A stretch of DNA of 32,518 nucleotides from an uncultured Dehalococcoidaceae bacterium (GCA_964439675.1 CAYTRA010000001.1:1-32518); one strand, 5' to 3'. Numbered from the stretch's first letter, positions 1,034 through 32,518 are shown. Translations and numbers: made by a program. Notes: a model not told the origin generated them from the letters alone.

Positions 1034-1386
1034 ACGGCACCGCTCCCATCCGGCCGGAGGGCCGACTCAATGGCATCGTACGAGAAGCACGCATGGCATG
1101 TCCTCGCAATCGCCGGTGGAGGCTCGCGTTCGCGAGGGACTCGATGCTGCGTACCGGATGCAGCCGCGGCGGGGCGATTAGATGCGTGATGCCGACGCTT
1201 ACGAGTGGTAATCCGACATAAGGCTCGCTTTACTGATCCTTGACTGATCAGCACTGACTGACGCCTATCTTCAGGAAGTCATAAGCGTCCAGTATTTGCC
1301 ATAGCGATTTCATCGCAGATAGTGCGGGCGCTCGTGCTCCCCGCTCCCTGTGTGGCTCGCACAGGTCCTTCTCTTGCAGATCGCGC

Positions 1387-1400
1387 GGAACAAGTGTTCC
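1387..1400. promoter_or_regulatory. Perfect 14-bp palindrome GGAACAAGTGTTCC (GAAC-N4-GTTC, Cheo/LexA-box-like) in the leader of the giant surface-protein gene
   Basis: Read directly from the sequence. It sits 52 nt upstream of the ATG at 1452 and has the same core as the box in front of imuB at 15228-15241. Function is not demonstrated. Confidence 0.35.
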
Positions 1401-1451
1401 CGCATATCGCTGCGGTTCCTCGACCGTGGTGACTCTGGACGGGTGGTCCCG

Positions 1452-13634: not shown

Positions 13635-13981
13635 CGAGGTGACCTGCCATCTCTCCGACCATCGGGCGCCTGCTGCGCCTCGGTGTACGGCTGCTCGAAC
13701 CAGGCCCCGGTCACGTCGTCGTGGTAGAGCGTGAGCGGGCGGCCGCCCTCCAGCACCACGCGGTAGTACGTGCGGCGCTGCGGCGTCTCCCGCCACCACG
13801 CCTCCGCCAACCGCCACTGCTCCTCGATGCTCTCGATGCGGGACTCCACCCCTCGACGTCCGCGCGTGTCCGTGCGGGCCACCGCCAGCGGCGTCCCGTA
13901 CTCGTCCTCGCGCACGGCCAGCGTCCGCGCCAGCCCGATCGGCCGCAGCGAGGTGGAGGCCGACCGGCGGGCGGGCCTCAC
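13631..13981 (-). CDS. 116-aa protein resembling the C-terminal domain of full-length ImuB (possibly the DUF6504 family; recollection only)
   Basis: Its GTG start overlaps the imuB stop (GTGA, 13978-13981) and its stop overlaps the dnaE2 start (ATGA, 13631-13634). The motif IESIEEQWRLAEAWWRETPQRRTYYRVVLEGGRPLTLYHDDVTGAWFEQ matches, from memory, the W-rich...RxY...G.WF pattern at ImuB C-termini. Confidence 0.7.
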   Translation of the reverse strand: MRPARRSASTSLRPIGLARTLAVREDEYGTPLAVARTDTRGRRGVESRIESIEEQWRLAEAWWRETPQRRTYYRVVLEGGRPLTLYHDDVTGAWFEQPYTEAQQAPDGRRDGRSPR

Positions 13982-18600: not shown

Positions 18601-21600
18601 GACCCGGGCGGGTAGCGGCAGCGGCTCCGTGGAAAGTGCCCCCGCGGGCATCGAATGCGGCGACGACTGCTCCGAGCTCTACCCCCTCGACACGGAAGTC
18701 ACGCTGACCGCCACGGCGGCCGTCGGCTCCACCTTCGCCGGCTGGAGCGGCGATGCAGACTGCACGGACGGCGCCGTGACCATGTCCGCCGACGCGGACT
18801 GCACGGCCACGTTCAACCTGATCCCGTACGACCTCACAGTCACGCTCGCCGGTGATGGGGCCGGGACGGTAACCAGCGCGCCGGCCGGCCTCAACTGCGG
18901 CGAGACGTGCGAGGCGACCTTCGACTACGGCTCGACCGTCACGTTGACGGCGACCCCGGCTGACGGGTCGGTCTTCCTCGGCTGGACGGGTGACGCCGAC
19001 TGCTCGGACGGCGCCCTGGCCATCTCCTCGGACGCCAGTTGCACGGCGACCTTCGTCCTGCCGGCCACCTCGATCACGCTGACCACCGCCGGCGGTGAGA
19101 CGGAGGCGACCATCGAGGCCGGCGGCACGGTGGACCTCGTCGTCACCATGCGCAACGCCGAGGGCGACGCGACGCCGCACCTCGATGGTGCGCAGAGCGT
19201 CGTCTTTGCCGGCCTGTCCTCGTCGCCGGCGGGCGACGACCCGGTAATGGCGGACGCGACCTGGGGGGCGGGCACGCTGACGGTGGACCTCGCGTTCACG
19301 GACGGCGTGGCTAGCGCGGCGCTGCAGGTGTTCGACGCCGGCGTCGCCAACCTGATCGCGACATCCGAGGGCTTCGATTCGGCTGCGTTCGACCTCACCG
19401 TCACGCACGCGGCGGGTGAGCGCCTCAGCATCGCGCAGCAGCCGTCCGCCACGGCGGCGGCAGGCGTCGCCTTCGCGACGCAGCCCGTCGTCCAGGTGCT
19501 GGACGCGTACGGCAACCTCGTCACCACTGGCGCGGACGCGACCGTCGAGGTGACCGCCGGCCTCGAGGACGGCACGCTCGCCGGCGATGCGACCGTGGCC
19601 GCCGCGGGTGGTGTGGCGTCGTTCGGTGACCTGGCGGTCCAGACGGTCGGCGCGGGCCAGGCACTGGAGTTCTCGGCCACGCTGGCCGCCGGTCAGCGCA
19701 GCGCGACCTCCGAAGCGTTCACGATCACCGCCGGCCTGCCGGCGCAGATCGTCGTTGTCACCCAGCCCTCGGGGACTGGCGTGGGCGACCTCGTCCAGCA
19801 GCCGGTGGTCGAGGTGCGTGACGCGTTCGGCAACGTCGTCACGACGGACCCGGACGGTGACGCCACCGAGATCGTCGAGGTGACCCTGGAGTCCGGGTCG
19901 GCCGGCGCCGTGCTTGGCGGCACAAAGCAGGTTGCCGTGACGTGGGCGACGGGGCGTGCGACGTTCGCCGGCCTCGATGTCGACCGGCCCGGCGACTACA
20001 CGCTCGCGTTCCAGCCCACCGCCGCCTGGGGTGACGCCGCGGAGGCGCTGGGCGCGGTGAACAGCGAGGAGTTCACGGTTCCAGCGGCGACGCTGGTGGA
20101 CCTCTCGATCGCGCCGTACCTCGCGTATGCCGGCAACACGGCGGGGATGATGTTCTCGTTCGAGACCGTGACCCCGATCCCCGCGATGGGTTGGTTCACG
20201 GTCACGCTCCCCGCGGGCTACACGCTGACGGAGCACGACACGTACAACGTCCAGGTCGGTGACGGCTTTGTCGCCATCGACTCCGTGAGCATCGTCGGGC
20301 AAACGGCGACGTTCGTCTTCGTCAACCCGGTCGCGGCCGGCAGCACGGTGAGCATGGGCCCGATGGCCGGTGTCACCAACCCGACCACGCTCGGCCTCAC
20401 GGGCACGTACTTGGTGGAGACCCGCACGGCGGAGGGCGTCCTGCTGGACTCCGCGTCTGCCCCGGGGACGGTCATCGGCGCGGGTGACATCGCCCGCTTC
20501 GAGATCACAGTGAACGACGGCAACCCGGTCACCGCCGGCGTGGAGTTCGGCATTGCCGTGCGCGCGTACGACGCGTGGGACAACCTCATTGACCGCGGGA
20601 CCGAGGTGACCCTGTCGTTCAGCACGGATGCAGGCGAGGCGCCCATCGACGGGTGGGAGCCCCAGGTCGCTGATGAGCGTGGCTACGACTTCGGCGGCGG
20701 GGTGCTCGAAGTCGAGGACTTCACGTTCTACGACGCGAGCGAGACGCCCCGCATCACTGTGACCCGGGTGGGCGGCGCCAGCAGCCAGAGTGCACCCATC
20801 GAGGTGCTCTCTGGCACGGTCGCGCCGGCGGCCGCCATCATCACTTCGAGCGAGGCTATCGGGACGACCGCGCAGACGGCGACGATCACCGTGCGTCTGT
20901 TCGACGTGCTGGGCAACGCCATGGAGACAGGAGGCGAGACGGTTGTGCTCACCTCCACCCACGGCACCCTGAGCCCGGTCAGGGACGTGGGGGACGGCAC
21001 CTACCGTGCGACGCTCAGCGCCTCGGCGGTCGGTGACGCCGTGGTCAGCGCCACGGTGAACGGCGTTCCGGTCACCACCGGCGACGCGACCGTCGAGTTC
21101 ACCGAGCCGCCCGTCGAGCCGGAGCCCGACCCGCCCGCCGATGACGGGGACGTCATCGAGGAGACGGGCGAGGTCATGGTGCCGGTGACGGGCCGCCAGA
21201 CGACCGACCTGCCCGCGAACGAGACCGCCGTCGTCGAGACGGGGGGCCCGGACGGCTCCACGGTCAAGGTGACCGTGCCTCCGGCTGCCCTCGGCGAGGA
21301 CCGCCCGGAGGGCCTCCGCGTGGAGGTCGCGGTCGCGGAGGACAAGGAGCGGGTGGCCGAGCAGGCCCCGCCGCCCCCCAACGCGGATGTGGTCACACAG
21401 TTCGTCGTGCGGCTCGTGGACTCGCAGGGCAACGCGCAGCCGGCCAACTTCACGGAGCCTGTCTCCATCGAGTTCACGGTGCCGGCGGACGAGGTGCCGC
21501 AGGACGCGGACCTGGCCGCGCTGGTGCTGGTCTTCTGGAACGGTGAGGCGTGGGTAGAGGTCGAGGCCGTCGCGACATCGAACGAGGACGGCTCCGTGAC

Positions 21601-21889
21601 CCTGGTCTCGCAGGTGATGCACTTCAGCCTGTACGGCGTCCTGTGGGCGCCGCCGGAGTGGGGCTCCTTCGAACCGGTCCCGGCCGCCGGCCTCACGCTC
21701 ACGCGCTGGCACGGCGGGGGCTGGACTCGCCTCGAGGCCGCCCTCGGCACCGGCGGTAGCGTCTGGCGCTTCATCGACGGGGAGGCCGTCGGCTACATCG
21801 CCGGCGCCCCGGCCTGGGTGAACCGCGCGTTCATCGAGGCGTACCCCGACGGCTTGCCGGCCGGGTCACCCACGGTGGTGAGGCGCTAG
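15632..21889 (+). CDS. Giant (2085 aa) secreted mosaic protein: two right-handed beta-helix modules with GG[AG]I (polymorphic-membrane-protein-like) repeats, InlB-B-repeat-like domains, multiple Ig-like (Big) domains, acidic Pro linker, uncharacterised C-terminal domain
   Basis: Track ORF. The N-terminus is hydrophobic and ends in AHA/DH, which is signal-peptide-like. The exact start is uncertain: no clear SD precedes 15632, and there are alternative GTGs at 15644 and 15677. By eye there are about eleven GGAV/GGAI/GGGI turns. The sequences SGSGSVESAPAGIECGDDCSELY...FAGWSGDADC and GAGTVTSAPAGLNCGETCEATF...FLGWTGDADC are B-repeat-like. The repeat QPVVQVLDAYGNLV / QPVVEVRDAFGNVV is Ig-like. Confidence 0.9.
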   Translation: MWLGVQRALWWKGVCVIAALLGAWPLHTLRVLPVVLVALTAASLLAPHDVAHADHSPVYVSPTGDDEAAGTSEAPFATLQAAIDHLGAGGGVINLAAGTYSGTSATIGAGATFSIVGACTAGTPTTTLQGNGAATVLAVIAGDVALECLEVTGGGGETDGAGLSVGAGAKVHGRSLSISGNAATGFGFGGAVANNGSLTLEDSAITGNSAAFGGAVYNVGTLRIRNSTIGNNDALGMADFGLPGMGAGLYLQDAAVTEEVILDEVTFTGNDAGDGGAIYVAGGYLAMFGGTVTSNTAAIGAGISTAGGASTFRGVSFHANNGTPAHVSVTGGTVDLEWNYWNNGAGLAPGEVTEASVPTNTCPTAACEAALTLAFDEASDAGTVSLSLAATETVFAAYNAMRTALDPGFSLFTPSASCASAEAPCVRTLPLGMSVNLNGPGGAVSTSWAGCADTVTIATAVTCTATLSEQILMRLLSTGDDYPTLADALAAAAPGDTIQLPAAEYASTSVTITQDVTIAGTCDAEGAPQSVLRPSGANRIMTVQSDVTVSVDCVQFTGATANVGGGAILNMGDLTLDRVEVTGNTSTHSDGGGGIRNQGAATLHITNSKITNNQATTGRGGGIYVFASAGEDGVVSVKDSVISGNTSDFGGGISIYGMLVGGGVPHGPLVVLDNTTVESNTAVGDLASTGGGAIFNQWARVFASHSAIRDNDGYSGGAIWNDGVAWLLDTDVTTNDATGDGGGILNHRYLVMLGGSVTDNQADGDGGGVAMNGNTQALRGVTLDGNAAGGAGEDVFGLLDGFPYWANFALEWNYWPDLQAGDIDWGDVTSPPGGKICADADCRVNLDLEPGAGGTLTLRPYTAEAVETGGAIQFLHQLHAASLTYAVGSDAAQPRIGPLVRTFPADLGLPALAGVGDGTCSSAEGCALPLPLGTTYIVGASALENYEFDSWTGPNCAASDDSPSTTDRVDVASAIECGAQFNALGHTLDVTRAGSGSGSVESAPAGIECGDDCSELYPLDTEVTLTATAAVGSTFAGWSGDADCTDGAVTMSADADCTATFNLIPYDLTVTLAGDGAGTVTSAPAGLNCGETCEATFDYGSTVTLTATPADGSVFLGWTGDADCSDGALAISSDASCTATFVLPATSITLTTAGGETEATIEAGGTVDLVVTMRNAEGDATPHLDGAQSVVFAGLSSSPAGDDPVMADATWGAGTLTVDLAFTDGVASAALQVFDAGVANLIATSEGFDSAAFDLTVTHAAGERLSIAQQPSATAAAGVAFATQPVVQVLDAYGNLVTTGADATVEVTAGLEDGTLAGDATVAAAGGVASFGDLAVQTVGAGQALEFSATLAAGQRSATSEAFTITAGLPAQIVVVTQPSGTGVGDLVQQPVVEVRDAFGNVVTTDPDGDATEIVEVTLESGSAGAVLGGTKQVAVTWATGRATFAGLDVDRPGDYTLAFQPTAAWGDAAEALGAVNSEEFTVPAATLVDLSIAPYLAYAGNTAGMMFSFETVTPIPAMGWFTVTLPAGYTLTEHDTYNVQVGDGFVAIDSVSIVGQTATFVFVNPVAAGSTVSMGPMAGVTNPTTLGLTGTYLVETRTAEGVLLDSASAPGTVIGAGDIARFEITVNDGNPVTAGVEFGIAVRAYDAWDNLIDRGTEVTLSFSTDAGEAPIDGWEPQVADERGYDFGGGVLEVEDFTFYDASETPRITVTRVGGASSQSAPIEVLSGTVAPAAAIITSSEAIGTTAQTATITVRLFDVLGNAMETGGETVVLTSTHGTLSPVRDVGDGTYRATLSASAVGDAVVSATVNGVPVTTGDATVEFTEPPVEPEPDPPADDGDVIEETGEVMVPVTGRQTTDLPANETAVVETGGPDGSTVKVTVPPAALGEDRPEGLRVEVAVAEDKERVAEQAPPPPNADVVTQFVVRLVDSQGNAQPANFTEPVSIEFTVPADEVPQDADLAALVLVFWNGEAWVEVEAVATSNEDGSVTLVSQVMHFSLYGVLWAPPEWGSFEPVPAAGLTLTRWHGGGWTRLEAALGTGGSVWRFIDGEAVGYIAGAPAWVNRAFIEAYPDGLPAGSPTVVRR
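15791..18090 (+). repeat. Duplicated beta-helix module (about 15791-16670 and 17066-18090), each ending in the motif LEWNYW
   Basis: Module heads: AAGTYSGTSATIGAGATFSIVGACTAGTPTTTLQGNG...LECLEVTGGGG versus PAAEYASTSVTITQDVTIAGTCDAEGAPQSVLRPSG...VDCVQFTGATA. Module ends: VDLEWNYWNNGAG versus FALEWNYWPDLQAG. Confidence 0.7.
18586..19057 (+). repeat. Two full tandem InlB-B-repeat-like domains of about 78 aa each, preceded by a degenerate copy at about 18460-18585
   Basis: HTLDVTRAGSGSGSVESAPAGIECGDDCSELYPLDTEVTLTATAAVGSTFAGWSGDADCTDGAVTMSADADCTATFN versus YDLTVTLAGDGAGTVTSAPAGLNCGETCEATFDYGSTVTLTATPADGSVFLGWTGDADCSDGALAISSDASCTATFV. Confidence 0.75.
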
Positions 21890-21914: not shown

Positions 21915-21940
21915 AAGGGGCCGCCGAGAGGCGGCCCCTT
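21915..21940. terminator. Perfect 11-bp stem hairpin (aaggggccgcc-gaga-ggcggcccctt) between convergent genes; bidirectional intrinsic terminator
   Basis: It lies 26 nt after the giant-gene stop (21889) and 22 nt after the minus-strand cytochrome c stop (21962). The flanks are short T/A-containing stretches on both strands. Confidence 0.78.
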
Positions 21941-21961: not shown

Positions 21962-22342
21962 CTAGTTCAGAGTGGCCAGGTACGCCGCGATGTCCGCGGC
22001 CTCCTCCTCCGACACACCGAGGATCGGCATGATGGTGCCGGGCTCGATGGAGTCGGGCGCCATGATCCACTGGACCAGGTTCTCGAAGTTGTTGGGCACC
22101 GCGCCGGCGATGTAGTAGCGCGCCCCGAAGTCGTCGAGCGGCGGGCCGACCCGGCCGTTCGCGCCGCTCACGCCGGGGATCGAGTGGCACGAGCCGCAAC
22201 CGTACGCCCGGATCGCCGCCTTACCTCGGTCCGCGTCGGCGGACGGCGGTACGTCCAGGATGCCCTCCGCGTCCGCGGGCGCGCAGGCGACGAACAGCAG
22301 CGCGAGGGCCAGCACCGCGATGCCGGCACGTCGAGGCGTCAT
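21962..22342 (-). CDS. Monohaem class-I cytochrome c, lipoprotein-type signal (126 aa)
   Basis: It has a CGSCH haem-binding motif, a downstream Met (GTIMPIL), and a signal peptide with the lipobox-like LLFVAC. Its ATG overlaps the ctaG stop (ATGA at 22339-22342). Confidence 0.85.
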   Translation of the reverse strand: MTPRRAGIAVLALALLFVACAPADAEGILDVPPSADADRGKAAIRAYGCGSCHSIPGVSGANGRVGPPLDDFGARYYIAGAVPNNFENLVQWIMAPDSIEPGTIMPILGVSEEEAADIAAYLATLN

Positions 22343-23199
22343 GCGTCACCCCCTGACGGTGCACGCTGCTCCGCGACCGGTCCACCGATGAGGCGCAGCC
22401 CGATCACGACCATGGCCCCCACGTAGACCAGCCCGCCCAGCATCAGCATCAGCAGCCCGCCGAGTTGCTGGTCGCTCATTGCGGCCTCACCGGCCGTCTC
22501 CGCGGCCAGGTGGTAGAGCGGCGCAGAGGCGAACGTGAGGAAGGCGCCAAGCGCCAGCCCGGACAGCATGACCGCGAACAGCATCCCGGCGGCCTGGGTC
22601 TGGCGGTGTGGTGCGCCTCGCGCCAGGGTGACGACGCGCTGCCAGAGCAGGAACGCCGCCGCGCCCCTCGTGAGGTGCTCGAGCCCGTGCACCACGCCGT
22701 TGCGCTCGGCGGCGTCGTAGAGCGTCGGGAGGTGCCACGCCCACAGCACCGCGACGTGCAGCGCCACCAGCGCCGGCGCCGAGGCCAGCGGCCGGAGCAC
22801 CCTTCGCGCGGCGCGCCAGCCTCGCACCGCGTGCCCTCGAGGTGTAAGCGCGGCCCAGGCGAACGCGGTGGCTGGCGCTCCCAGCGCCGCGAGGGGCGCC
22901 GCCACGTCCACGACCAGCAGGTGCTGCGCCATGTGCCCGGGGAAGCGTTCCGTCAGCCCGAGGAGCGGCATCGCCAGCAGCGCCAGCCCCAGCACCGCGA
23001 GCCCGCCGATGTAGACGCGTGCCTGCACCCGCGAGATGCCCGCGCCGACGCCCGCTCGCGCCCACAGTCGCCTCACGCCGCGCTGGTAGAGCGCGAACGC
23101 GCCCAGGACAAACCCGGCCCCGGCGAGCACCTCGAAGGTGGCGGCGTTGCTCGCGCCGGTGGCGGCGTGGGCGATGAGGTGTGGCGCGAGCGGCGTCAC
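22339..23199 (-). CDS. ctaG: Cytochrome c oxidase assembly factor CtaG (Bacillus/caa3 type, polytopic membrane protein, about 286 aa)
   Basis: Track ORF 22339-23490, but its first 97 codons are Arg-rich and overlap the upstream gene. The GTG at 23199 gives a GTGA overlap with the upstream stop (GTG 23208 is an alternative). The motif FPGHMAQHLLVVDVAAPLAALGAP and multiple TM helices are typical of Caa3_CtaG. Confidence 0.8.
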   Translation of the reverse strand: MTPLAPHLIAHAATGASNAATFEVLAGAGFVLGAFALYQRGVRRLWARAGVGAGISRVQARVYIGGLAVLGLALLAMPLLGLTERFPGHMAQHLLVVDVAAPLAALGAPATAFAWAALTPRGHAVRGWRAARRVLRPLASAPALVALHVAVLWAWHLPTLYDAAERNGVVHGLEHLTRGAAAFLLWQRVVTLARGAPHRQTQAAGMLFAVMLSGLALGAFLTFASAPLYHLAAETAGEAAMSDQQLGGLLMLMLGGLVYVGAMVVIGLRLIGGPVAEQRAPSGGDA

Positions 23200-23585
23200 G
23201 GCACGCACCCCGTCCCCACTGTCCCCACGATGCCGAGCGCCATCGCCATCAGCGCGAGCCCGCCGAGCACGATGCCCCCGGAGGCCAGGAAGTGGTCCCG
23301 CTCCGGTGCGGGCGCGAAGCCTCGCTCCGGGTCGCGTGGCGGCCGTCGGAGGATGCGGATCGAGAGGATGGTGGACGCGGCCGCGACCAGCATCGTCAGC
23401 GCAGTGAGTCCGAAGATGAACGGCACGACGAACGCGTCCCCGCAGAAGTAGTTGGCCACGGCATACGAGCCGATCAGGTGCACCGTCCACGCGGACGTGC
23501 CGCCGAAGAGGGCGAACCCGAGCAACAGCGGGTGCGACCCGCGCGGCTGAGGAGCGCGCTCGCCTCGTTCAGCGCTCATAGCCAT
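23196..23585 (-). CDS. Small 3-TM membrane protein (about 127-129 aa), possible oxidase accessory or subunit-IV-like protein
   Basis: This is the last part of track ORF 23196-24221. Only the portion downstream of the subunit I/III stop is plausible. Start options are the ATG at 23585 or the ATG at 23579 (ATGA overlap with stop 23576-23578). Three clear hydrophobic helices are present (LLLGFALFGGTSAWTVHLIGSYAV, FVVPFIFGLTALTMLVAAASTILSI, FLASGGIVLGGLALMAMALGIVG). Third-position GC is high. Confidence 0.65.
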   Translation of the reverse strand: MAMSAERGERAPQPRGSHPLLLGFALFGGTSAWTVHLIGSYAVANYFCGDAFVVPFIFGLTALTMLVAAASTILSIRILRRPPRDPERGFAPAPERDHFLASGGIVLGGLALMAMALGIVGTVGTGCVP

Positions 23586-26092
23586 CTCACCCCCACGTAC
23601 AGCACCGCGAAGACGGCCAGCCAGATCAGCGTGAGGAAGTGCCAGAACCACGCGATGTTCGGCATGTCCGAGCGTCGCCGTGGTTCGTGCGAGACGAACC
23701 ACGTCCGCACCAGCACCCAGCCCAGGATCAGTACGCCCACCGCCACGTGCGCCCAGTGCGCGCCGGTGATCGTGAAGAACAGCGAGGCGTACGCGTTGTC
23801 CGTCGGCCCGTATCCGACATCGCGGAACTCCAGGCCCTGCAGCACCAGGAACGCCACGCCGAGGGCCATCGTGACCAGGAGGCCGAGGCGCAGCGCGACC
23901 GGACGCTCGCGGTCGGCCTCGGTCTGGGCGCGCGACCACTGGATGCTCGCGCTGCACGCCACCAGCAGGACGGTGAGCACGGCCGGGAGCAGCAGGTCCG
24001 GCGGCTCGATGCCGCCCTGCGGCCATTCGTCCGAATTGCCGCGCACGAGGAAGTACGAGGACAGTGAGCTCCCGAACAGCACCCCCTCCGTCACCAGGAA
24101 CAGCGACATCCCCCAGCGCCCCAGCGCGTGCGGCCCGGCGAGGATGACGAACGGGAGGTGAGAGCGCTCCCGGATCACCTCGATGCGCTCGGGGGCGTCC
24201 TCGGGCGAACGCCAGAGCCACGCTGCGACGACCAGCCCGACCGCTGCCAGGAACACCGCCCCCACGAAGTAAGCCTCCAGCAGTGTCGCCGTGACGGAGC
24301 CGGTGAGGGCCAGGGCGGCGAGCAGGGGCAGGTAGGTCGGCCCGGGCATCCGCAGGATGGCGTCCGGAGCGCCGTCCAGGATCGACGTGGTCACCACCTC
24401 GCGGCCCTGGTCCAGTGGCTCCTCGATGCGATCGAGGTCGCCGCCGCGTTCAGGGGTGCGGTCTTCCCACATGGGCGAGCGCCCGTGCACGATCGGCAGC
24501 CGCTCGAAGTTGTAGGGCGGCGGTGGGGAGGACGTGGCCCACTCCAGCGAGTCCGCGCGCCACGGATCGTCGCCCGCGGGGACGCCTCGACGTGGCGTGG
24601 TGAGGAGGTCCCACACGAGCACGATGACCCCGAGGGCGAGCACGACGTAGCCGCTGCTGGAGATGAGGTTGTGGATCTCCCAGCCCAGCCCCTCCGCGTA
24701 GGTGTAGACGCGTCGAGGCATGCCGAGCATCCCCACGATGTGCTGCGGGAAGAACGTGATGTTGAACCCGGCGAGGACCAGCCAGAACGAGGTGTGGCCC
24801 AGTACCGGGCTGGGCATGAAGCCCGTGATCTTGGGCCACCAGTGGTACAGCGCACCAAAGATGGGGAAGACCACGCCGCCCACCAACACGTAGTGGAAGT
24901 GCGCCACCACGAAGAAGGAGTCGTGCACCTGCCAGTCGAAGGGGACCATGGCCACCATCACCCCCGTGATCCCGCCGATCACGAAGGTCACGATGAACCC
25001 GAGCGCGTACATCATCGGCACCGTGAAGGAGACGCGTCCCCCGAGGATCGTCGCCAGCCACGCGAAGATCGAGATGCCGCTGGGGATGGCGATGGTGAAG
25101 GACGCCGCCGCGAAGAACGTGATCGGCAGCAGGTCCAGCCCCGTGGAGAACATGTGGTGCACCCACAGCCCGAACGCCAGGATGCCTATCGCGATGCTGG
25201 CCACCGCCACGATGGAGAAGAGGATGATCGGCCGGCGGGCGTGCACCGCGACCACCGTGGAGATGATGCCCAGAGCCGGCAGCAGCAGGATGTAGACCTC
25301 CGGGTGTCCCCAGATCCAGAACAGGTGCTGCCAGAGAAGCGGACTTCCTCCCCCATCCGGGTCGAAGAACTGCGTCCCCACGTGCCGGTCCAGCGCCAGC
25401 AGCGCGGTCGCGAGGGTGAGCGAGGGCAGGGCGATGAGGATCGTGAACGCCATGTCCACGTAGCCCCACAGCAGGAGCGGCATCCGCTGCACACCCATGC
25501 CCGGCGCGCGCATCCGCAGGATGGTGACCACGAAGGTGATCGCGGCGGCCGTGGTGGACGTGCCCAGGAACAGGATCCCCAGCGTCCAGAAGTCCATCCC
25601 CAGGCCCGGCGAGAAGTCCGCGTCCGTGAGGGGCACATACGCGAACCAGCCGCCGTCCGGCACCTCCTCCACCAGGAAGCTCGTGTACATGAAGATTCCG
25701 GAGGCCAGGAACACCCAGTACCCAAAGGCGTTGAGGCGGGGGAACGCCAGGTCGCGGGACCCGATCATCAGCGGGATGACGTACGTCCCGAGCCCAATGA
25801 GCATCGGCGTCGCGAAGTAGAAGATCATCGTGGTGCCGTGCATCGTGAAGATCTGGTTGTAGGTGTCCGGCCCCAGGAACTCGTTGTCCGCCACGGCCAG
25901 TTGAGTGCGCATGAGGCCGGCCTCGATGCCTCCGACCAGGAAGAAGACGAACGCCGTCACGATGTAGCGGAGGCCCACGCGCTTGTGGTCCACCGTGGCG
26001 AGCGTCTGCGCCAGGATGTGTGGGCGCGCCCACACGCCTCGAAGCGTCTCGATCTCCCGCGCGTCGCCGCGGACAGTCTCCGCAGCCGTCAC
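23576..26092 (-). CDS. ctaD: Cytochrome c oxidase subunit I fused to subunit III (838 aa)
   Basis: Haem-copper oxidase signatures are present: TVDHKRVGLRY, WGHPEVYILLLP, HHMFSTG and VVAHFHYVLVGG. The C-terminal part of about 280 aa is subunit-III-like (FFTITGAHWAHVAVGVLILG, NIAWFWHFLTLIWLAVF). The start codon is GTG. Confidence 0.95.
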   Translation of the reverse strand: MTAAETVRGDAREIETLRGVWARPHILAQTLATVDHKRVGLRYIVTAFVFFLVGGIEAGLMRTQLAVADNEFLGPDTYNQIFTMHGTTMIFYFATPMLIGLGTYVIPLMIGSRDLAFPRLNAFGYWVFLASGIFMYTSFLVEEVPDGGWFAYVPLTDADFSPGLGMDFWTLGILFLGTSTTAAAITFVVTILRMRAPGMGVQRMPLLLWGYVDMAFTILIALPSLTLATALLALDRHVGTQFFDPDGGGSPLLWQHLFWIWGHPEVYILLLPALGIISTVVAVHARRPIILFSIVAVASIAIGILAFGLWVHHMFSTGLDLLPITFFAAASFTIAIPSGISIFAWLATILGGRVSFTVPMMYALGFIVTFVIGGITGVMVAMVPFDWQVHDSFFVVAHFHYVLVGGVVFPIFGALYHWWPKITGFMPSPVLGHTSFWLVLAGFNITFFPQHIVGMLGMPRRVYTYAEGLGWEIHNLISSSGYVVLALGVIVLVWDLLTTPRRGVPAGDDPWRADSLEWATSSPPPPYNFERLPIVHGRSPMWEDRTPERGGDLDRIEEPLDQGREVVTTSILDGAPDAILRMPGPTYLPLLAALALTGSVTATLLEAYFVGAVFLAAVGLVVAAWLWRSPEDAPERIEVIRERSHLPFVILAGPHALGRWGMSLFLVTEGVLFGSSLSSYFLVRGNSDEWPQGGIEPPDLLLPAVLTVLLVACSASIQWSRAQTEADRERPVALRLGLLVTMALGVAFLVLQGLEFRDVGYGPTDNAYASLFFTITGAHWAHVAVGVLILGWVLVRTWFVSHEPRRRSDMPNIAWFWHFLTLIWLAVFAVLYVGVRWL

Positions 26093-26123
26093 GCCAGCAC
26101 CGCCGTCCGAGGGGCGCCGGGCA

Positions 26124-27188
26124 TCAGTCGAGCGCCTGCAGGTAGCCGAGGATGGCGTCCAGTTCCTCGGCGCTCAGTTGGGTCGGGGGCATCTGCGTGC
26201 CGGGCTTCACCGCCTGCGGGTCCAGGATCCATCCCGCGAGGTAGCCCCGTGTGTTGGGGATGACCCCGGACGCCAGCGTCTCCCGGCTGGCGATGTGCGT
26301 GAGGTCCGGGCCGACGGTCCCGGAGGCGTTGGTGCCGCGGATGGTGTGGCAGTAGACGCACGCCGAATTGAGGAACGCCTGCTGCCCCGCGAGCAACGCC
26401 TCGTCCTCTGGGCCGACGGGATCGGCCGGCTCCGCCTGTGCCGCGAGCCACTCGTCGAAGTCCTCGCGAGGTTCGGCGTAGACGCGGAAGCGCATGCCGG
26501 CGTGCTGAAGGCCGCAGAACTCGGCGCACTGGCCGCGGAACATGCCGGGCTCGGAGGCCTCCAGGATCACGCTGTTGGTCTGCCCGGGCACCAGGTCGAT
26601 CTTCCCCGCGAGTTCGGGCACCCAGAACGAGTGGATGACGTCCTCTGACTTCAGCAGCACCTCCACCGCCTCCCCAGCGGGGACGTGCAGTTCGTTGGCC
26701 GTGACCACGTCCGCGTCCGGGTAGCGGATCTCCCACCACCACTGGTGGCCGATGACCTCGACGCGCACGTTGTCCTCCGGCGCGGCTTCCGTGACGGCGC
26801 GGCCGGTCCACACGGTGAGGACCATGAGCACCACGCCCACCAGCACCGGGAGGCCGATGCCCCCGCCGAAGACGAGCCAGCGGTCGCGTGTCAGCGTGTC
26901 AACGTACTCCGGCGCGTCCGGCCGCCGAGCGCGCACGAGGGCGACGAACAACACCGCCAGCACCAGCACCATGACGGCCACGGAGGTCCACAGCATCACC
27001 CACCACATCGTGGCGACACGCGCAGCCCTCGGCCCCTGCGGGTCCAGCATCCCCCCGCACCCGCTGGCCACGACCGCCACGAGGGCGACCAGCCCTACGA
27101 GCGCGAGCGACGGTAGCCGGCCCGCGCGACGCACACCTCGTGCGTCCGGCACGCCTCGATGCTCACGCGAGCGTGCGTGGTGCCGCAT
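26124..27188 (-). CDS. ctaC: Cytochrome c oxidase subunit II with a C-terminal cytochrome c domain (caa3-type IIc)
   Basis: The CuA site reads HSFWVPELAGK...CAEFCGLQHAGM. The C-terminal CVYCH haem c motif has a downstream Met (GTQMPP). There is a lipoprotein-like signal, VVASGC. The start is uncertain: ATG 27188 overlaps the upstream gene by 26 nt, and GTG 27134 is an alternative. Confidence 0.92.
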   Translation of the reverse strand: MRHHARSREHRGVPDARGVRRAGRLPSLALVGLVALVAVVASGCGGMLDPQGPRAARVATMWWVMLWTSVAVMVLVLAVLFVALVRARRPDAPEYVDTLTRDRWLVFGGGIGLPVLVGVVLMVLTVWTGRAVTEAAPEDNVRVEVIGHQWWWEIRYPDADVVTANELHVPAGEAVEVLLKSEDVIHSFWVPELAGKIDLVPGQTNSVILEASEPGMFRGQCAEFCGLQHAGMRFRVYAEPREDFDEWLAAQAEPADPVGPEDEALLAGQQAFLNSACVYCHTIRGTNASGTVGPDLTHIASRETLASGVIPNTRGYLAGWILDPQAVKPGTQMPPTQLSAEELDAILGYLQALD

Positions 27189-28902
27189 CGAAGTAGTGCT
27201 CGCGGATGACGTCGCCCTGCATGTAGGCCAGGGCGGCCACGGTGGCCGTGGGGTTGGCGCCGGCGTTCTGTGGGAACAGCGCTGCGCCCGTCACGAAGAC
27301 GTTGGGCGTGTCCCAGACCTGCCCGTACTTGTTGGTCACCGAGTCACCGGGGTCGAACCCCATGATCGCGCCGCCCGTGGGGTGCGTGCTCTGGTAGTCC
27401 GCGATGTTGTAGGGATCGAGTTCCTCGGGCGCCTCGATCACGGCCGGGCCCATGGCCTCCAGGATCTCGCGCGCTCGCGCGGCCATGAAGGCCCACATCT
27501 TGTAGTCGTTGTCGTGCCAGTCGAAGGTGAGCCGGAGCAGCGGCTGACCGTCCGCGCCCTTGTAGATCGGGTCCAGGTCCAGGAACTGGTCCGGATAGGG
27601 GAAGGAGTCGCCCTCGAAGATCAGGTCGGCTGTGGCGTCCCACTGGTCGCGGAGCGCGTCCTTCCACTCCTGTCCCCACTTCTTGCCGGTGCCCTCCACG
27701 GGGAAGCCGGTGACCGTGGTCTCCGGGTTGCGTTCGCCGGAGGTGGACCAGAACTGCCCGCCGCCCACGAAGTCCAGATCGGAGTGGTCCAGCACGGCTC
27801 CGTGGAAGTCGTGCATGGCCATCATGGTGGTGCCATTGCCCATGTAGGTGTTGAAGTGCCGACCGGGGAAGTAGCCCCGCCACGGGCTGACGAAGTGCTG
27901 GTAGGTGTAGTTCTGCCCCACCTTCCCCCGGTCGTTGCCGATGCCCTGGGGGTGCCGCTCGCCCTGGGAGAGCAGCAGCATGCGGACGTTGGTGAGCGTG
28001 AAGCCCGCCAGGATCACCACGTCCGCCGGCTGCTCGTGCTCCTGCCCGTCCTTGTCCACGTACATGACGCCGGTGGCCAGCCCGTCAGCGTTGAGGTTCA
28101 CGCGCGTCACGGTGGCCTGCGTGCGCACGCGGTAGTGCCCCGTGTTCAGCGCGGCCGGAAGGTGCGTGGTCAGCGCACTGGACTTCGCATCCACCTCGCA
28201 GCCAAAGCGGGTACAGAAGCCGCAGTAGAGGCAGCCGCTGCGCACATTGCCGAAGGGGTCCGTGTAGGCCTGCGAGAGGATGCCGGAGGAGAACGGGAAG
28301 GCGTGGTACCCCAGTCCCTCGCACGCCTCCGCGAACATGTCGCCGGGGATGCTGTGCGCCAGCGGAGGGTTGGGGTACGGCCTCGACCGAGGTGGCCCGA
28401 AGGGGTTGGCGTCGCCATCTCCAGACGCGCCGATGTCCCACTCGAAGGCGGTGTAGTACGGCTCCAGTTCGTCGTACGTGACGGGCCAGTCCTGGATCTG
28501 GCTGCCCTCCGGCAGCCGGTCCTCGCCGTAGGCCTCGACGATGTGGGAGCGCACCCGCAGGTCGTTCGGGTAGAAGCGCCAGAGTTGCGCCGTCCAGTGC
28601 ACCCCCGCCCCGCCCAGGCCCTGCCCGGGGTTGAACGTCCCGTACTGCCGCATGGGCAGCGAGGGCGAGTCCGGGTTGGGCCGCCAGGTCCACGTCTCCT
28701 TGCGGAGGTTCACCATCATCGCGTGGCGCTCGTGGAAGCGGAGGGCGTCATGGTTGTGCTGGAAGCCGGGATTCGCCCAGCGGCCCGGCCCCTGTTCCAG
28801 GGAGACGACGTCGATACCGGCCTCGCCCAGCTTCCACCCGAGTATCGAGGCGACCCAGCCGCCGCCCACCGTCACCACGTCGACCTTCTTCTGTCGCGCC
28901 AC
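27163..28902 (-). CDS. GMC-family FAD-dependent oxidoreductase, large (flavoprotein) subunit of a gluconate-2-dehydrogenase-type enzyme (579 aa)
   Basis: This is the C-terminal 579 aa of track ORF 27163-29931. The GTG at 28902 is preceded by GAGGAGG 7 nt upstream. The N-terminal Rossmann motif is KKVDVVTVGGGWVASILG and the C-terminal motif is STHPTGGAIMG...NVFVTGAALFPQNAGANPT, which is typical of the GMC family. Confidence 0.9.
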   Translation of the reverse strand: MARQKKVDVVTVGGGWVASILGWKLGEAGIDVVSLEQGPGRWANPGFQHNHDALRFHERHAMMVNLRKETWTWRPNPDSPSLPMRQYGTFNPGQGLGGAGVHWTAQLWRFYPNDLRVRSHIVEAYGEDRLPEGSQIQDWPVTYDELEPYYTAFEWDIGASGDGDANPFGPPRSRPYPNPPLAHSIPGDMFAEACEGLGYHAFPFSSGILSQAYTDPFGNVRSGCLYCGFCTRFGCEVDAKSSALTTHLPAALNTGHYRVRTQATVTRVNLNADGLATGVMYVDKDGQEHEQPADVVILAGFTLTNVRMLLLSQGERHPQGIGNDRGKVGQNYTYQHFVSPWRGYFPGRHFNTYMGNGTTMMAMHDFHGAVLDHSDLDFVGGGQFWSTSGERNPETTVTGFPVEGTGKKWGQEWKDALRDQWDATADLIFEGDSFPYPDQFLDLDPIYKGADGQPLLRLTFDWHDNDYKMWAFMAARAREILEAMGPAVIEAPEELDPYNIADYQSTHPTGGAIMGFDPGDSVTNKYGQVWDTPNVFVTGAALFPQNAGANPTATVAALAYMQGDVIREHYFDAAPRTLA

Positions 28903-29906
28903 TACCGGTCCTCCTCGCCGCCTCGTCCGTCCGGGCCGTGGCGGTGCTCGCCGTGGCCGCCCTCCCGGACGCGCTGGTTCTGAGGGTCGTCGTCGCTCAC
29001 GGGGAGGATGACGCCCTCGTTCGGCGCGGTCCCCGCGTTGAAGGCGTGCAGCATCGCCATGCTCTGCGGCGGTCGAGGCTCGGCCTCCGTCCGCATGTCC
29101 GTGGGCGTGTAGGCGCGTTGCGCGCCGGGGTAGCCGATCAGCCGCCAGCCCACCATGTCCCGGTTCCCCCCGTACGAGGGGTCCGCGAACATCCCGTGCG
29201 CCGTGTCGCGCCGGAGCGTCTCGAAGAACAACTCCGCGCTCGGTTCGTCGAACGTGGGCGCCTCGTCGTCCGCCAGCGCGGTCACGATCTCGTCCTGCTG
29301 GTCCTCGTCCAGGTCGACGAACCGCGCGCCGAGGCGTTCCTGGCTCAGGGCGTCCAGCGACTCGAGGCCGCGTCGATAGATCTCGCGCGGGGTGAGTTGG
29401 GACTGGAACCCATACCGGTCGATCTCGTCCTCGGAGACATAAATGACGTCCGAGCCTGACTCGCCAGGCGGCGTGTCGCCTGAGTAGGTCTCCGCGAATG
29501 GCGGTTCGATGTATGTCGGCCGCCAGAAGCCCTCGACGGTGGCGAGCATAACGTCCATATACGTGAGGACGCCCGCCTCGCGTGCACCGGGGTCTTCCGG
29601 TGTTCCAGGGATGAGGCGCGCCGTGAACGCCTCGATGGTCGTGGCCTCGTGCTCCGTGAAGAAGCCGAGGCGTTCGCGGTCGATCTCCTCGGGCGGGGGC
29701 GGGACGTTGTCGGCGTATGCGGCCATGTTGCTGGGGATGCGGACCTCGATGTCGGTCTCGTCGTCCACCTCGCACCCGACGAGGTAGCCGCCAACCGCGA
29801 GGAGCGTCAGCACCTGTGCGGAGCCGCGCAGGAACTGCCTTCGTGAGGCTGTCCGTGAGACCACCGGTAGGTCGATGGGGGAGCGGTCGGTTGCGGAACC
29901 GGGCAT
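28902..29906 (-). CDS. Gluconate 2-dehydrogenase subunit 3 family protein (small subunit) with a twin-arginine signal (334 aa)
   Basis: The Tat motif SRRQFLRGSAQVLTLLAVGG is followed by LVGC. Family-like motifs are FFTEHEATTIEAFTARLIPG...PGAREAGVLTYMD and FADPSYGGNRDMVGWRLIGYPG. Its stop shares one nucleotide with the GMC start (TAGTG at 28900-28904). Confidence 0.8.
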   Translation of the reverse strand: MPGSATDRSPIDLPVVSRTASRRQFLRGSAQVLTLLAVGGYLVGCEVDDETDIEVRIPSNMAAYADNVPPPPEEIDRERLGFFTEHEATTIEAFTARLIPGTPEDPGAREAGVLTYMDVMLATVEGFWRPTYIEPPFAETYSGDTPPGESGSDVIYVSEDEIDRYGFQSQLTPREIYRRGLESLDALSQERLGARFVDLDEDQQDEIVTALADDEAPTFDEPSAELFFETLRRDTAHGMFADPSYGGNRDMVGWRLIGYPGAQRAYTPTDMRTEAEPRPPQSMAMLHAFNAGTAPNEGVILPVSDDDPQNQRVREGGHGEHRHGPDGRGGEEDR

Positions 29907-30092
29907 GACTCGACGCTACAGGCGGGTTCAACCACCTTTGACCAACTTTGATCGGCTCCGAAACGCCGTTGCCATGCGCACCCCGGAAACCGCCAGCCCT
30001 GTGTCATCACGACCGAGATGCGGAAACGAGGCGCGGAAGGCACGACAGGACCGGGGGCCGCCTGATCCCCACAGTTGGCCCGAACGATCCTT

Positions 30093-30130
30093 CCGCCTCC
30101 CGTAGTCGCGGTGCTTTCCTCGGGAGGCGG
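30093..30130 (+). promoter_or_regulatory. Perfect 10-bp stem hairpin (ccgcctcccg - 18 nt - cgggaggcgg) in the leader of the 30155 gene
   Basis: Read directly from the sequence. The right arm contains GGGAGG, and a second GGGAGG lies at 30135-30140, 14 nt before the ATG at 30155. Confidence 0.4.
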
Positions 30131-30154
30131 AGACGGGAGGCCTGCGGGCGTTGC

Positions 30155-31810
30155 ATGGCTGATCGAGTGCGCCAGGAGTCGGGCGACGCGGGCGCGCGTC
30201 GCAAAGCGGAGCAGGTGGTACGGGTAGAGCACCCGCACACCGCGGCTCCCGCGAGCCTCCGAGGCCCCCACCTGCCTATCAGTCACATCGCATCACGCGC
30301 CGGCAACGCCGCTGCCCGCCGCGCCCTCCGGGGCGCCTCGAAGCCCTCGCCTGCCGCGCCAGCCCTCGGCGCACCGATCCGCCGCGAGGACGACCCGCAG
30401 GCGGCCGCGCCGGCCGCCGAGGCGCAGCAAGGCCCGGAGGCCGCGGAGCAGGCAGCCGCGGATCCGGCCGCCGCCGCCCAGGCGGCCACCCAGGACGCTA
30501 TGACCGACCTCGCGAGCGCGCAGGCCGAAGGGGCCGCGGCCTTCGACCGCTACTTCACGCTCCAGGACCGGCTGGTCCAGGCAGCCACGCCGCCGATGAT
30601 CCCGGATGTCCCTGCGAAGATGCAGGCCCAGTACCAGCAGGCGCACGCGTCATACGCCGCATTCGCCGCCAATGCGATCGTGGGCAAGGACCAGTTGGGA
30701 GCGAAGGTCGCGGCCCTCAAGGCCGAGTACGACCAGGCCGCTGCCAGTCGCGCAGCCGTGGCAACGACTGAGCAGGCCGATGCCTGGATCGCGCACGCCG
30801 CAGGAGTGCAGCAGGAGTACGCCGAAGGCGTCGATGCGCTGTCGGACCTGTACCGCGAGATCACGAAGGCGGCGCTGGAGTTCGCCGCCGTCGGCCGCAC
30901 GATCGACAGCCCCGAACTGATCCAGGCGCTGCTGCCCATCGCCGACGAGGCTGCGGTAGCCGCCTCGCAGCCCGGCGTGGCCCCCATGAACGTCGCCGCC
31001 GTGGTGACCCGGGCGCAGAAGCGCGACCAGGCCGCCAAGGGATTCACCGTGGGGGACGCGGTCATCGGCGTCGCCGGGATCATCGCGGAGTCCGTCGGCA
31101 TTGGCGTGGCTACCACCGCTGCGGTTGTGGCCGGGACGGTGTTCGGCAGCATCGGCGTGGCGGTGGGGGTCATTGGCGCGGCCTTCGCCATCCGGGCGGC
31201 CATGCGCTCCGCGGACGCGGAGCGCAGCCTGGAGGGCGCGGAGCAGTACCTCACTGGCGTGACCGCCAAGGAAGTCGCGAAGTTCGGCCGCAACCAGAAG
31301 ATGAAGAAGAAGCACCGCCAGATCGGGGTTGCTGTCCTCGGCACCGTCGCCGCTGCGGTCGGCCTCGCCGGGGTGCTCAGCGGCGGGCTGGGCCTCGCCA
31401 TCGCCGGCATCGTCATCGGGGTGGCCAGCCTGGGGCTGATCATCGCCAAGCACCTCGCGGCCCGGCAAGTGAAGGCCGCGGACGACTCCGCCGCCTCCGA
31501 GCTGGCCGCCGCCTACGTCGCCGCCGCCGCTCGAGGCGAACCGGAAGCGACGAAGATCGTGCACCAGGACCACCAGGGCGATCCGGACAAGCTCAAGGCA
31601 TGGGCCGCCTCCATCATCGAGACGCGGCGGCGCAGCAGCGCGGAGCAGGTGGTGGCCATGGCCAGCAGCGACAAGCCGTCCGACCGCTTCAACGGCGAGA
31701 CGCTGCTCCAGGCCCTGCACGTCAAGATGGACGACTTCCAGGCGGCCCTGGATGCCGGCGATCAGAACGCCGCGGTCGCCCTCGTGGAGCGCAAACTGCA
31801 GTCCTGGTAG
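30155..31810 (+). CDS. Hypothetical Ala-rich protein with two glycine-zipper-like TM hairpins (551 aa from ATG 30155)
   Basis: Track ORF 29948-31810, but the upstream part overlaps the divergent promoter region and is Arg-rich. Start candidates are ATG 30155 or GTG 30215 (GGAG 4 nt upstream). Third-position GC is high throughout. Hydrophobic hairpins lie at about 31043-31193 (GDAVIGVAGIIAESVGIGVATTAAVVAGTVFGSIGVAVGVIGAAFAI) and about 31322-31447 (IGVAVLGTVAAAVGLAGVLSGGLGLAIAGIVIGVASLGLIIA). Confidence 0.75.
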   Translation: MADRVRQESGDAGARRKAEQVVRVEHPHTAAPASLRGPHLPISHIASRAGNAAARRALRGASKPSPAAPALGAPIRREDDPQAAAPAAEAQQGPEAAEQAAADPAAAAQAATQDAMTDLASAQAEGAAAFDRYFTLQDRLVQAATPPMIPDVPAKMQAQYQQAHASYAAFAANAIVGKDQLGAKVAALKAEYDQAAASRAAVATTEQADAWIAHAAGVQQEYAEGVDALSDLYREITKAALEFAAVGRTIDSPELIQALLPIADEAAVAASQPGVAPMNVAAVVTRAQKRDQAAKGFTVGDAVIGVAGIIAESVGIGVATTAAVVAGTVFGSIGVAVGVIGAAFAIRAAMRSADAERSLEGAEQYLTGVTAKEVAKFGRNQKMKKKHRQIGVAVLGTVAAAVGLAGVLSGGLGLAIAGIVIGVASLGLIIAKHLAARQVKAADDSAASELAAAYVAAAARGEPEATKIVHQDHQGDPDKLKAWAASIIETRRRSSAEQVVAMASSDKPSDRFNGETLLQALHVKMDDFQAALDAGDQNAAVALVERKLQSW

Positions 31811-32010: not shown

Positions 32011-32518
32011 ATGAGGAGGCGGCGCGTGGCACAACTGACGCGGGTAGCGGTCCCTGAGTCGATGTCCGGGCTGTGGTCGTGGATGACGACGGTCGACCAC
32101 AAGCGCATCGGCCTCATGTACGGAGTGACCGCGCTGACGTTCTTCCTCCTCGGCGGCGTAGAAGCCCTCCTGGTCCGGACGCAACTGGCGGTGCCGAACG
32201 GCTCGGTGCTGGACGCGGACCTCTACAACCAGCTGTTCACCACGCACGCGCTGACCATGATCTTCCTGGCGATCATGCCGCTCACCGTCGCGCTCATGAA
32301 CTACCTGATCCCGCTGCACATCGGCGCGCGCGACGTGGCGTTCCCCCGGCTGAACGCCCTCTCCTACTGGATCTACCTGTCCGGTGGCGTGCTGATGACG
32401 GCCTCGTTCTTCCTCGATGGCGCGCCGGACGGTGGGTGGTTCAACTACGCGCCGCTGAGCGTCCCGGAGTATTCGCCCACCTCGCGCATCGACTACTACG
32501 TGATCGCCCTGCTGATCC
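32011..32518 (+). CDS. ctaD: Second cytochrome c oxidase subunit I paralog, 5-prime part (runs off the window)
   Basis: Absent from the ORF track because it is open-ended. The translation is MRRRRVAQLTRVAVPESMSGLWSWMTTVDHKRIGLMYGVTALTFFLLGGVEALLVRTQLAVPNG...FPRLNALSYWIYL...GGWFNYAPLS, which carries typical subunit I N-terminal signatures. The start could be ATG 32011 or the in-frame ATG 32062. Confidence 0.88.
   Translation, partial: MRRRRVAQLTRVAVPESMSGLWSWMTTVDHKRIGLMYGVTALTFFLLGGVEALLVRTQLAVPNGSVLDADLYNQLFTTHALTMIFLAIMPLTVALMNYLIPLHIGARDVAFPRLNALSYWIYLSGGVLMTASFFLDGAPDGGWFNYAPLSVPEYSPTSRIDYYVIALLI

Follow-up and report, generated by a model that had tools for sequence, protein, structure and literature searches.

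The window analysed here is an entire 32.5-kb contig (32,518 nucleotides; GCA_964439675.1 CAYTRA010000001.1:1-32518) of the metagenome-assembled genome (MAG) of an uncultured Dehalococcoidaceae bacterium (2.9 Mb, 512 contigs, 77.6% complete, ~70% G+C). Seven intact open reading frames (ORFs) lie head to tail on its minus strand at 21962-29906 and encode, from 5' to 3', a small subunit, a GMC-family FAD dehydrogenase, CoxII fused to cytochrome c, a fused CoxI/III, a 127-aa protein, CtaG and a monohaem cytochrome c. With a probability of roughly 60%, these genes represent one operon for a short aerobic respiratory chain at the outer face of the cytoplasmic membrane, which would bypass quinone. 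The dehydrogenase belongs to a clade in which adjacency to such oxidase genes is found in every evaluable member.

Gene content and junctions of the module

28902..29906, minus strand: small subunit, Gluconate_2-dh3 family, 334 aa (Pfam PF13618, 3.3e-33)
27163..28902, minus strand: GMC-family FAD dehydrogenase catalytic subunit, 579 aa (GMC_oxred_N 6.3e-10, GMC_oxred_C 1.6e-22)
26124..27188, minus strand: CoxII with a C-terminal fused cytochrome c (CVYCH) (COX2 and Cytochrom_C; CoxB equivalog 190 bits against a cut-off of 147.7)
23576..26092, minus strand: fused CoxI/III, 838 aa (COX1 5.9e-146, COX3 1.3e-20; CtaD equivalog 689.8 bits against a cut-off of 670.75)
23196..23579, minus strand: 127-aa membrane protein with two to three hydrophobic segments (hydropathy)
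22339..23199, minus strand: CtaG, caa3-type oxidase assembly factor, 286 aa, ~6 transmembrane helices (Caa3_CtaG PF09678 1.1e-33; hydropathy)
21962..22342, minus strand: monohaem class-I cytochrome c, 126 aa (Cytochrom_C 3.2e-08; haem motif CGSCH)
21915..21940, no strand: G+C-rich hairpin with an 11-bp stem, between the convergent ends of the seven-gene cluster and a gene for a 2085-aa probable surface protein

Gene assignments by Pfam and NCBIfam profile matches at curated cut-offs agree with the identities given in the initial annotation (a GMC pair, a caa3 oxidase, CtaG and a cytochrome c). Its description of seven co-directional genes with gaps of at most about 31 nt is borne out by the intact ORFs and by the junctions, which were read straight from the sequence; under the favoured CoxII starts, all of them are overlaps of 1-4 nt or gaps of no more than 31 nt, the 31-nt gap being the one ahead of the CoxI/III gene. 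The overlaps ATGA at 23576-23579, GTGA at 23196-23199 and ATGA at 22339-22342 were read at the same coordinates as before. The TAGTG overlap placed at 28900-28904 is real, the small-subunit TAG and the GMC GTG having base 28902 in common, but the GMC start lies at 28902 and not at 28904. A possible 26-nt overlap at 27163-27188 depends on ATG 27188 as the CoxII start; this is a possible start, but GTG 27152 or GTG 27134 is more likely, because the latter yields a lipoprotein signal of normal length ending in VVASGC. The gap between the GMC gene and coxII would then be 10 nt or 28 nt, respectively.

The strong hairpin reported after the last gene is confirmed by its stem and by the folding of the 71-nt region that holds it (−35.2 kcal/mol, z = −2.87), and it is a probable bidirectional terminator. 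It is situated between convergent genes and its U tract is poor, for which reason it was missed by the consensus terminator scan; the scan returned a single weak 5-bp site, inside coxI. Consensus scans for sigma-70-like promoters and terminators over the operon gave no match of either type at the junction of the GMC gene with coxII, where the two genes overlap or lie no more than 28 nt apart, and nothing was therefore matched that would split the dehydrogenase from the cox genes. The operon has no sigma-70-like site in the same scan, which is uninformative for a Chloroflexota genome of 70% G+C. The seven genes would, as judged from the sequence, be co-transcribed as one operon.

The small subunit begins with a Tat motif (SRRQFLRG) followed by a lipobox (LVGC), and is predicted to be a Tat-exported lipoprotein carrying the flavoprotein across the membrane. 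The GMC protein is devoid of a signal peptide and begins directly at its Rossmann motif (GxGxxG at residues 13-18, with VDVVTVGGGW present), and this lack, together with the Tat signal on the small subunit, fits hitch-hiker export. It has a catalytic-His motif (STHPTGGAIMG) and a four-Cys motif, C-L-Y-C-G-F-C-T-R-F-G-C (CLYCGFCTRFGC), with the spacing CxxCxxCx4C. Among structural relatives sought in the PDB, the best matches were the alpha subunit of Burkholderia cepacia FAD-GDH (6a2u, 5.8e-37) and Gluconobacter japonicus fructose dehydrogenase (7w2j, 2e-36), and the four-Cys motif aligns to the Fe-S cysteines of both (3Fe-4S in 6a2u). The motif may hold an Fe-S cluster, its spacing being that of the 4Fe-4S type of AceDH discussed below. 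The GMC fold, the Tat small subunit and the Cys-rich motif that define hitch-hiker GMC FAD/Fe-S dehydrogenases are all present.

Respiratory FAD dehydrogenases of the gluconate-2-dehydrogenase family are known from textbooks as enzymes that reduce quinone, and direct-electron-transfer biosensors are built on them. The source module resembles B. cepacia FAD-GDH (6a2u, 8hdd) and G. japonicus fructose dehydrogenase (7w2j) in its Tat-exported Gluconate_2-dh3 small subunit, its signal-less GMC subunit, the Cys-rich Fe-S site at the equal position and the periplasm-facing location. However, those enzymes have their own trihaem cytochrome c subunit which passes electrons to ubiquinone, and none was found with the source module; their Fe-S motif is of the 3Fe-4S type CCx4Cx3C as compared to CxxCxxCx4C in the source protein, and their genes are not encoded with a terminal oxidase. 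The trihaem third subunit of the heterotrimeric type was thus not found in the operon or in the 77.6% complete MAG, and the features of the two-subunit GmcAB type (an alpha-beta make-up, the motif CxxCGFCxxx(x)C and no cytochrome subunit) are found instead.

The GmcAB enzyme of Methylacidiphilum fumariolicum SolV, an acetol dehydrogenase (AceDH), is an alpha-beta enzyme in which a GMC subunit is paired with a small subunit bearing a Tat signal, a cytochrome subunit being absent; the motif CDQCGFCFQGC holds a [Cu-4Fe-4S] cluster of +275 mV at 10.9 Å from FAD, the Cu ligand being a Met from the conserved C-terminus of the short beta subunit, and the enzyme reduces cytochrome c_GJ (bioRxiv 10.64898/2026.06.11.731722). 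The view of the initial annotation that such dehydrogenases are normally heterotrimers is accordingly outdated, since a two-subunit enzyme reduces a c-type cytochrome (bioRxiv 10.64898/2026.06.11.731722), and this precedent indicates that two-subunit enzymes of the GMC type can donate to c-type cytochromes. The source pair shares with AceDH the two subunits, the Tat small subunit, the absence of a cytochrome subunit and the motif, CDQCGFCFQGC (as taken from the preprint) corresponding to CLYCGFCTRFGC. It differs in that AceDH is encoded in a 13-gene C3-catabolic cluster and not in an oxidase operon, and in that the source small subunit, set beside AceDH by the description in the preprint, is a predicted lipoprotein of 334 aa, twice the length of the AceDH beta subunit.

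A separate trihaem subunit was searched for by tblastn in the MAG and its relatives, using as query the ORF which follows the homologous GMC gene in Acidisoma silvae (locus L065) and is of the canonical type. No trihaem homologue was found in the MAG, which is 77.6% complete, or in the four module-bearing congeners (G005, G006, G007 and G009; one of them 92% complete), and a Truepera genome gave weak single-haem-domain matches alone. The earlier claim that the dehydrogenase is devoid of a cytochrome subunit therefore holds for the operon, the MAG and the four congeners.

The oxidase belongs to the caa3 subtype, as evident from the CuA site and fused CxxCH of CoxII, the CtaD equivalog match, the fused subunit III and the caa3-type CtaG. 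In CoxII, the CuA ligands are complete (H...CAEFCGLQHAGM) and follow a lipoprotein-type signal (VVASGC). The COX3 domain occupies residues 659-833 of the fused CoxI/III, and GHPEVY in helix VI of subunit I assigns it to the A1-type haem-copper oxidases. Its nearest solved relatives are actinobacterial aa3, Bacillus subtilis aa3-600 and the fused subunit I+III of Thermus thermophilus caa3 (2yev). The last is alike in having subunit II fused to cytochrome c and subunit I to III, but is of the A2 type without the helix-VI Glu.

The 127-aa protein matches no Pfam family above the cut-off and none in NCBIfam, and is a candidate subunit IV. Its orthologues hold the equal position in G009, G006 and G005 (33-49% identity), and similar-sized unnamed ORFs occupy this slot in other loci. 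The monohaem cytochrome c has a signal peptide and a lipobox-like sequence (LFVAC), and in its orthologues (43-61% identity) either a lipobox Cys or a transmembrane helix at the N-terminus serves as the anchor.

Linkage of dehydrogenase and oxidase across genomes

A scan of species-representative genomes for GMC homologues yielded 64 loci, of which 38 have oxidase genes on the same contig. In a quick IQ-TREE phylogeny (LG+G4; supports from the SH-like approximate likelihood ratio test, SH-aLRT), the cox-linked GMC proteins make up a single clade (SH-aLRT 99); each of its 37 evaluable members adjoins coxII-coxI/III-ctaG-cytc, which places the arrangement far beyond chance. Hosts of this clade include several Chloroflexota classes, Thermomicrobiota, Deinococcota, Actinomycetota and one Acidobacteriota MAG. 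The commonest order in the linked loci is coxII-coxI/III-x-ctaG-cytc-small-GMC; the dehydrogenase-first order is seen in the group of the source and one Egibacteraceae MAG, and a divergent order of the two halves in two Actinomycetota MAGs. Conservation of the adjacency in related genomes, which the initial annotation had proposed as a check, is therefore observed in 37 of 37 cases, over several phyla and in three arrangements. The three findings which that annotation named as refuting (a promoter or terminator between the two halves, a cognate cytochrome gene elsewhere, and adjacency without conservation) were each looked for and none was obtained, and its reading is to this extent supported.

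Within the genus, 12 species including the source MAG were compared. A GMC orthologue is present in 4 of the 11 other species (55-78% identity), and the cox genes adjoin it in all four; three share the source order, and in G007 the cox genes come first. In the wider set of 40 relatives examined for CoxI/III, the fused orthologue occurs only in the four species having the GMC gene. Dehydrogenase and oxidase are thus both present in 5 of the 12 species of the genus, and neither was found in the other 7.

Members of the linked clade also share features of sequence. The four-Cys motif CxYCGFCxRxGC is invariant across the cox-linked GMC proteins, and a Tat motif with a lipobox Cys is present in 22 of the 28 readable small subunits of this clade as compared to none of 6 in its sister clade. 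A C-terminal extension of the small subunit (LHxFxPG...LPVS), conserved in the linked clade and lacking in the sister clade, is represented in the source by the clade-specific C-terminus PQSMAMLHAF...LPVS.

The sister GMC clade, mostly from Thermomicrobiales and 55-58% identical, has no cox genes within 10 kb in any of the 7 evaluable loci. In loci L040, L045, L049, L050, L055, L071 and L078 of this clade, the Tat small subunits are devoid of a lipobox and no ORF with a CxxCH motif lies close by; just upstream in L050 lies a cupredoxin-like ORF with a Cys-His-Met motif. Distant proteobacterial GMC homologues (~40% identity) are followed by a trihaem or monohaem cytochrome c gene. In four Burkholderiales loci (L062, L064, L069 and L077; Massilia, Duganella and a Burkholderiaceae MAG) a 120-213-aa ORF with a single CxxCH, downstream of the GMC gene and at about positions 11500-12150 of the locus, replaces the trihaem subunit; the Acidisoma locus L065 and locus L066 retain the trihaem gene.

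Linkage was also examined from the side of the oxidase. In five genomes of other classes or phyla, the best match to the source CoxI is always the CoxI adjoining a GMC gene. In a CoxI tree, likewise a quick one, the 33 linked sequences are all grouped in a single clade (SH-aLRT 100), separate from the housekeeping CoxI of the same genomes. With the addition of metagenomes, on which the CoxI-first scan was made, the clade grows to 99 entries (SH-aLRT 100). One metagenomic locus (L130:5174-13761) carries a small-GMC pair of a distant lineage (44% identity), dihaem and monohaem cytochromes c, coxII, coxI/III and ctaG, the dihaem cytochrome c being a 322-aa ORF with two CxxCH motifs. A GMC dehydrogenase has here been joined to this oxidase clade for a second time, and independently.

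Across 31 linked loci, the distances between GMC proteins correlate with those between CoxI proteins (Mantel r 0.56; none of 2000 permutations as high), a result which is consistent with inheritance as a unit, although shared species phylogeny can also produce such a correlation. Both GMC and CoxI of G007 (locus L018, contig C7) group with the Egibacteraceae (Actinomycetota) locus and not with the group of the source, and the gene order differs as well; the Acidobacteriota locus groups with Ardenticatenaceae. Tree positions so at odds with taxonomy suggest horizontal transfer of the whole cassette, and further suggest that the modules of the source and of G007, though in one genus, derive from two separate acquisitions. 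In the soil long-read MAG loci L033, L068, L072 and L076, the cox and GMC genes of the module are split into many short tblastn pieces, which looks like assembly frameshifts rather than decay.

Proposed electron path and competing explanations

In the proposed path, the small subunit would be exported by Tat and lipid-anchored, and the signal-less FAD subunit would hitch-hike with it as in FAD-GDH. The flavoprotein would oxidise a hydroxylated substrate of the sugar, polyol or hydroxy-ketone class, and electrons would pass singly from FAD to the putative four-Cys Fe-S cluster near the protein surface, from there to the anchored monohaem cytochrome c and/or the cytochrome c domain of CoxII, and then by way of CuA, haem a and haem a3-CuB to O2. 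This route would avoid the menaquinone pool as well as the bc-type complex, and energy would be conserved solely by the proton-pumping A1-type oxidase. The Tat signal and lipobox of the small subunit, along with the anchored cytochrome c, would place all parts at one membrane face. The cofactors, the electron path, the class of substrate and the quinone independence are predicted from motifs and gene content.

The MAG has other respiratory genes. A second caa3 operon is located on contigs C110/C311, with ctaB on C279, and a further subunit-I gene at 32056-32517 (plus strand) of the window, ~48% identical to the module CoxI, is cut short by the end of the contig and has no coxII immediately upstream. 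The second caa3 operon and the third coxI indicate that the oxidase of the module is an additional one. A single ORF of the MAG has two or more CxxCH motifs, a dihaem cytochrome c on contig C215, and it is probably part of a bc-type complex. On C215 (L202:139-1772), the Rieske gene is followed by the dihaem cytochrome c gene and no cytochrome b gene was found beside them; the sole Cytochrome_B match in the MAG is weak and lies at the end of contig C369. Either the assembly of the bc-type complex is incomplete in this MAG or the complex is an unusual one.

Several observations weigh against a dedicated, quinone-independent chain. A 44-entry soil subclade of the oxidase and others have coxII-coxI-coxIII-x-ctaG-cytc without the GMC pair, 13 entries of that subclade having long downstream flanks with unrelated genes, and locus L091 of the same oxidase clade has no GMC pair within ~8 kb. 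The oxidase is therefore not intrinsically dedicated and must take electrons from elsewhere in such operons, and the cytochrome c and CtaG are general components of this type of oxidase operon. Given the Rieske gene beside the dihaem cytochrome c, the MAG probably also has a bc-type route into the same oxidase. In about 18 linked loci the GMC gene is followed by a cupredoxin-like gene, which the source module is without, and the carrier may therefore differ between lineages. Finally, the MAG is just 77.6% complete.

That the oxidase might be exclusive to the dehydrogenase was considered and is ruled out by the many operons without GMC genes in the same CoxI clade and by L091. The dehydrogenase pair is an add-on depending on the oxidase, and not the reverse. 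The extra lipoprotein cytochrome c of the initial annotation is indeed present, but it is a part of the oxidase operon type and is found without the dehydrogenase too.

The cupredoxin-like gene encodes a lipoprotein of the plastocyanin/azurin family (PF00127; 135-155 aa) and lies directly after the GMC gene in the ~18 cox-linked loci (for instance L039:11830-12237 and L022:11771-12223, both on the plus strand). The type-1 Cu ligands Cys, His and Met are retained in L024, L037-L039 and L043, and Cys is replaced by Ser in L022, L028, L035, L042 and L056. Generic cupredoxin homologues are encoded elsewhere in the MAG.

A stronger form of the proposal can be offered tentatively, namely that the genes are a horizontally mobile, self-sufficient cassette in which a dehydrogenase held at the membrane by a lipid anchor, with FAD and a 4Fe-4S cluster of high potential and unable to reduce menaquinone, is hard-wired to a membrane-bound cytochrome c and its own proton-pumping caa3 oxidase, possibly as a physical supercomplex, to give a new class of substrate:O2 chain for an organic substrate. 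If the cluster of the source enzyme were as high-potential as that of AceDH, menaquinone could not be its acceptor. The hosts in this case are the menaquinone-using phyla Chloroflexota, Deinococcota and Actinomycetota.

It is rather unlikely that the genes are merely co-regulated, both functions being needed aerobically and the dehydrogenase feeding a cupredoxin, another cytochrome, or quinone via a partner such as the 127-aa protein. This explanation gains from the wide occurrence of the oxidase operon type without the dehydrogenase, from the cupredoxin-like lipoprotein added in about half of the linked loci and the homologues elsewhere in the MAG, and from the 127-aa membrane protein being without family assignment. 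However, the linkage in 37 of 37 cases through three rearrangements, with gain or loss as a unit within the genus, exceeds what is usual for co-regulation; no quinone-reducing subunit is present, and the Cu-ligand Cys is gone from many of the cupredoxin-like genes.

Far less probable is a service of the GMC pair to the oxidase, in an accessory or protective role, by removal or production of a small molecule at the membrane, or in maturation, with no input of electrons. The assembly factor CtaG in the same cluster and the absence of conserved catabolic or transport genes beside the module would suit such a role. Nevertheless, the FAD motif, the catalytic His and the Fe-S exit motif of respiratory FAD dehydrogenases are retained, oxidases of the same clade work without the GMC pair, and to our knowledge an accessory role of this kind has no precedent.

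An adjacency without functional meaning, arising from a mobile-island accident or an assembly artefact, could be argued from the origin of most loci in MAGs and from tree positions that point to horizontal transfer, but it is effectively refuted by the same gene order in three other genomes of the genus and by a linkage which holds at 54-78% protein identity and after rearrangement; since synteny was read on single contigs, binning errors are irrelevant to it.

Neighbouring genes, related systems and significance

The neighbour-gene survey (all-against-all ORF clustering over 40 loci, then Pfam on recurrent families) disclosed no conserved catabolic enzyme or specific transporter that would hint at the substrate. 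Recurrent neighbours are a NarL-type response regulator with a dCache histidine kinase (5-6 loci), CtaB (3 loci), an ABC ATPase and a Na/H exchanger.

Elsewhere in the window, a DnaE2-like DNA polymerase III alpha of 1305 aa (PHP, DNA_pol3_alpha, finger, HHH and OB domains) is located at 10149-15192 on the minus strand, its gene overlapping the end of a gene for an ImuB-like Y-family polymerase (404 aa, IMS domain), and this pair looks like an error-prone repair cassette. Two secreted proteins are encoded on the plus strand, one of 2903 aa with eight DUF11 repeats (1350-10061) and one of 2085 aa with a right-handed beta-helix, InlB B-repeats and an invasin-D3-like Ig domain (15632-21889); both are probably cell-surface proteins. 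Divergent from the module, a 620-aa Ala-rich ORF at 29948-31810 (plus strand) has hydrophobic stretches and no Pfam match.

Two known systems resemble the module in principle. The rus operon of Acidithiobacillus ferrooxidans (cyc2-cyc1-orf-coxBACD-rus) likewise joins a substrate oxidiser, c-type and copper carriers and a dedicated aa3-type oxidase in one operon for a quinone-independent, downhill path to O2, but it is built from unrelated parts (rusticyanin and an outer-membrane cytochrome that oxidises Fe(II)), its substrate is inorganic and its host is an acidophilic proteobacterium. In the Alternative Complex III (ACIII)-caa3 operons of Bacteroidota, an electron-donating complex is also encoded and assembled with caa3; ACIII oxidises quinol, whereas the donor in the source module would be a substrate dehydrogenase. 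A full-text literature search, with subscription journals mostly outside its coverage, found no description of a GMC dehydrogenase-caa3 module. The parts and the principle (periplasmic dehydrogenase to cytochrome c to oxidase) are known, and a cross-phylum cassette around a dedicated GMC subfamily appears to be undescribed.

A whole GMC subfamily is thus genetically tied to a cytochrome c and a terminal oxidase, in phyla which use the low-potential menaquinone. If the proposed path is true, it would be a new branch of aerobic respiration, in which electrons from an organic substrate reach O2 with neither quinone nor a bc complex involved. The path may also explain the in vivo wiring of two-subunit GMC/Fe-S enzymes, a question raised by the AceDH work, and would supply natural pairs of dehydrogenase and monohaem cytochrome for bioelectrochemistry, along with an assayable function for genes annotated as 'GMC oxidoreductase' or 'gluconate 2-dehydrogenase subunit 3'.

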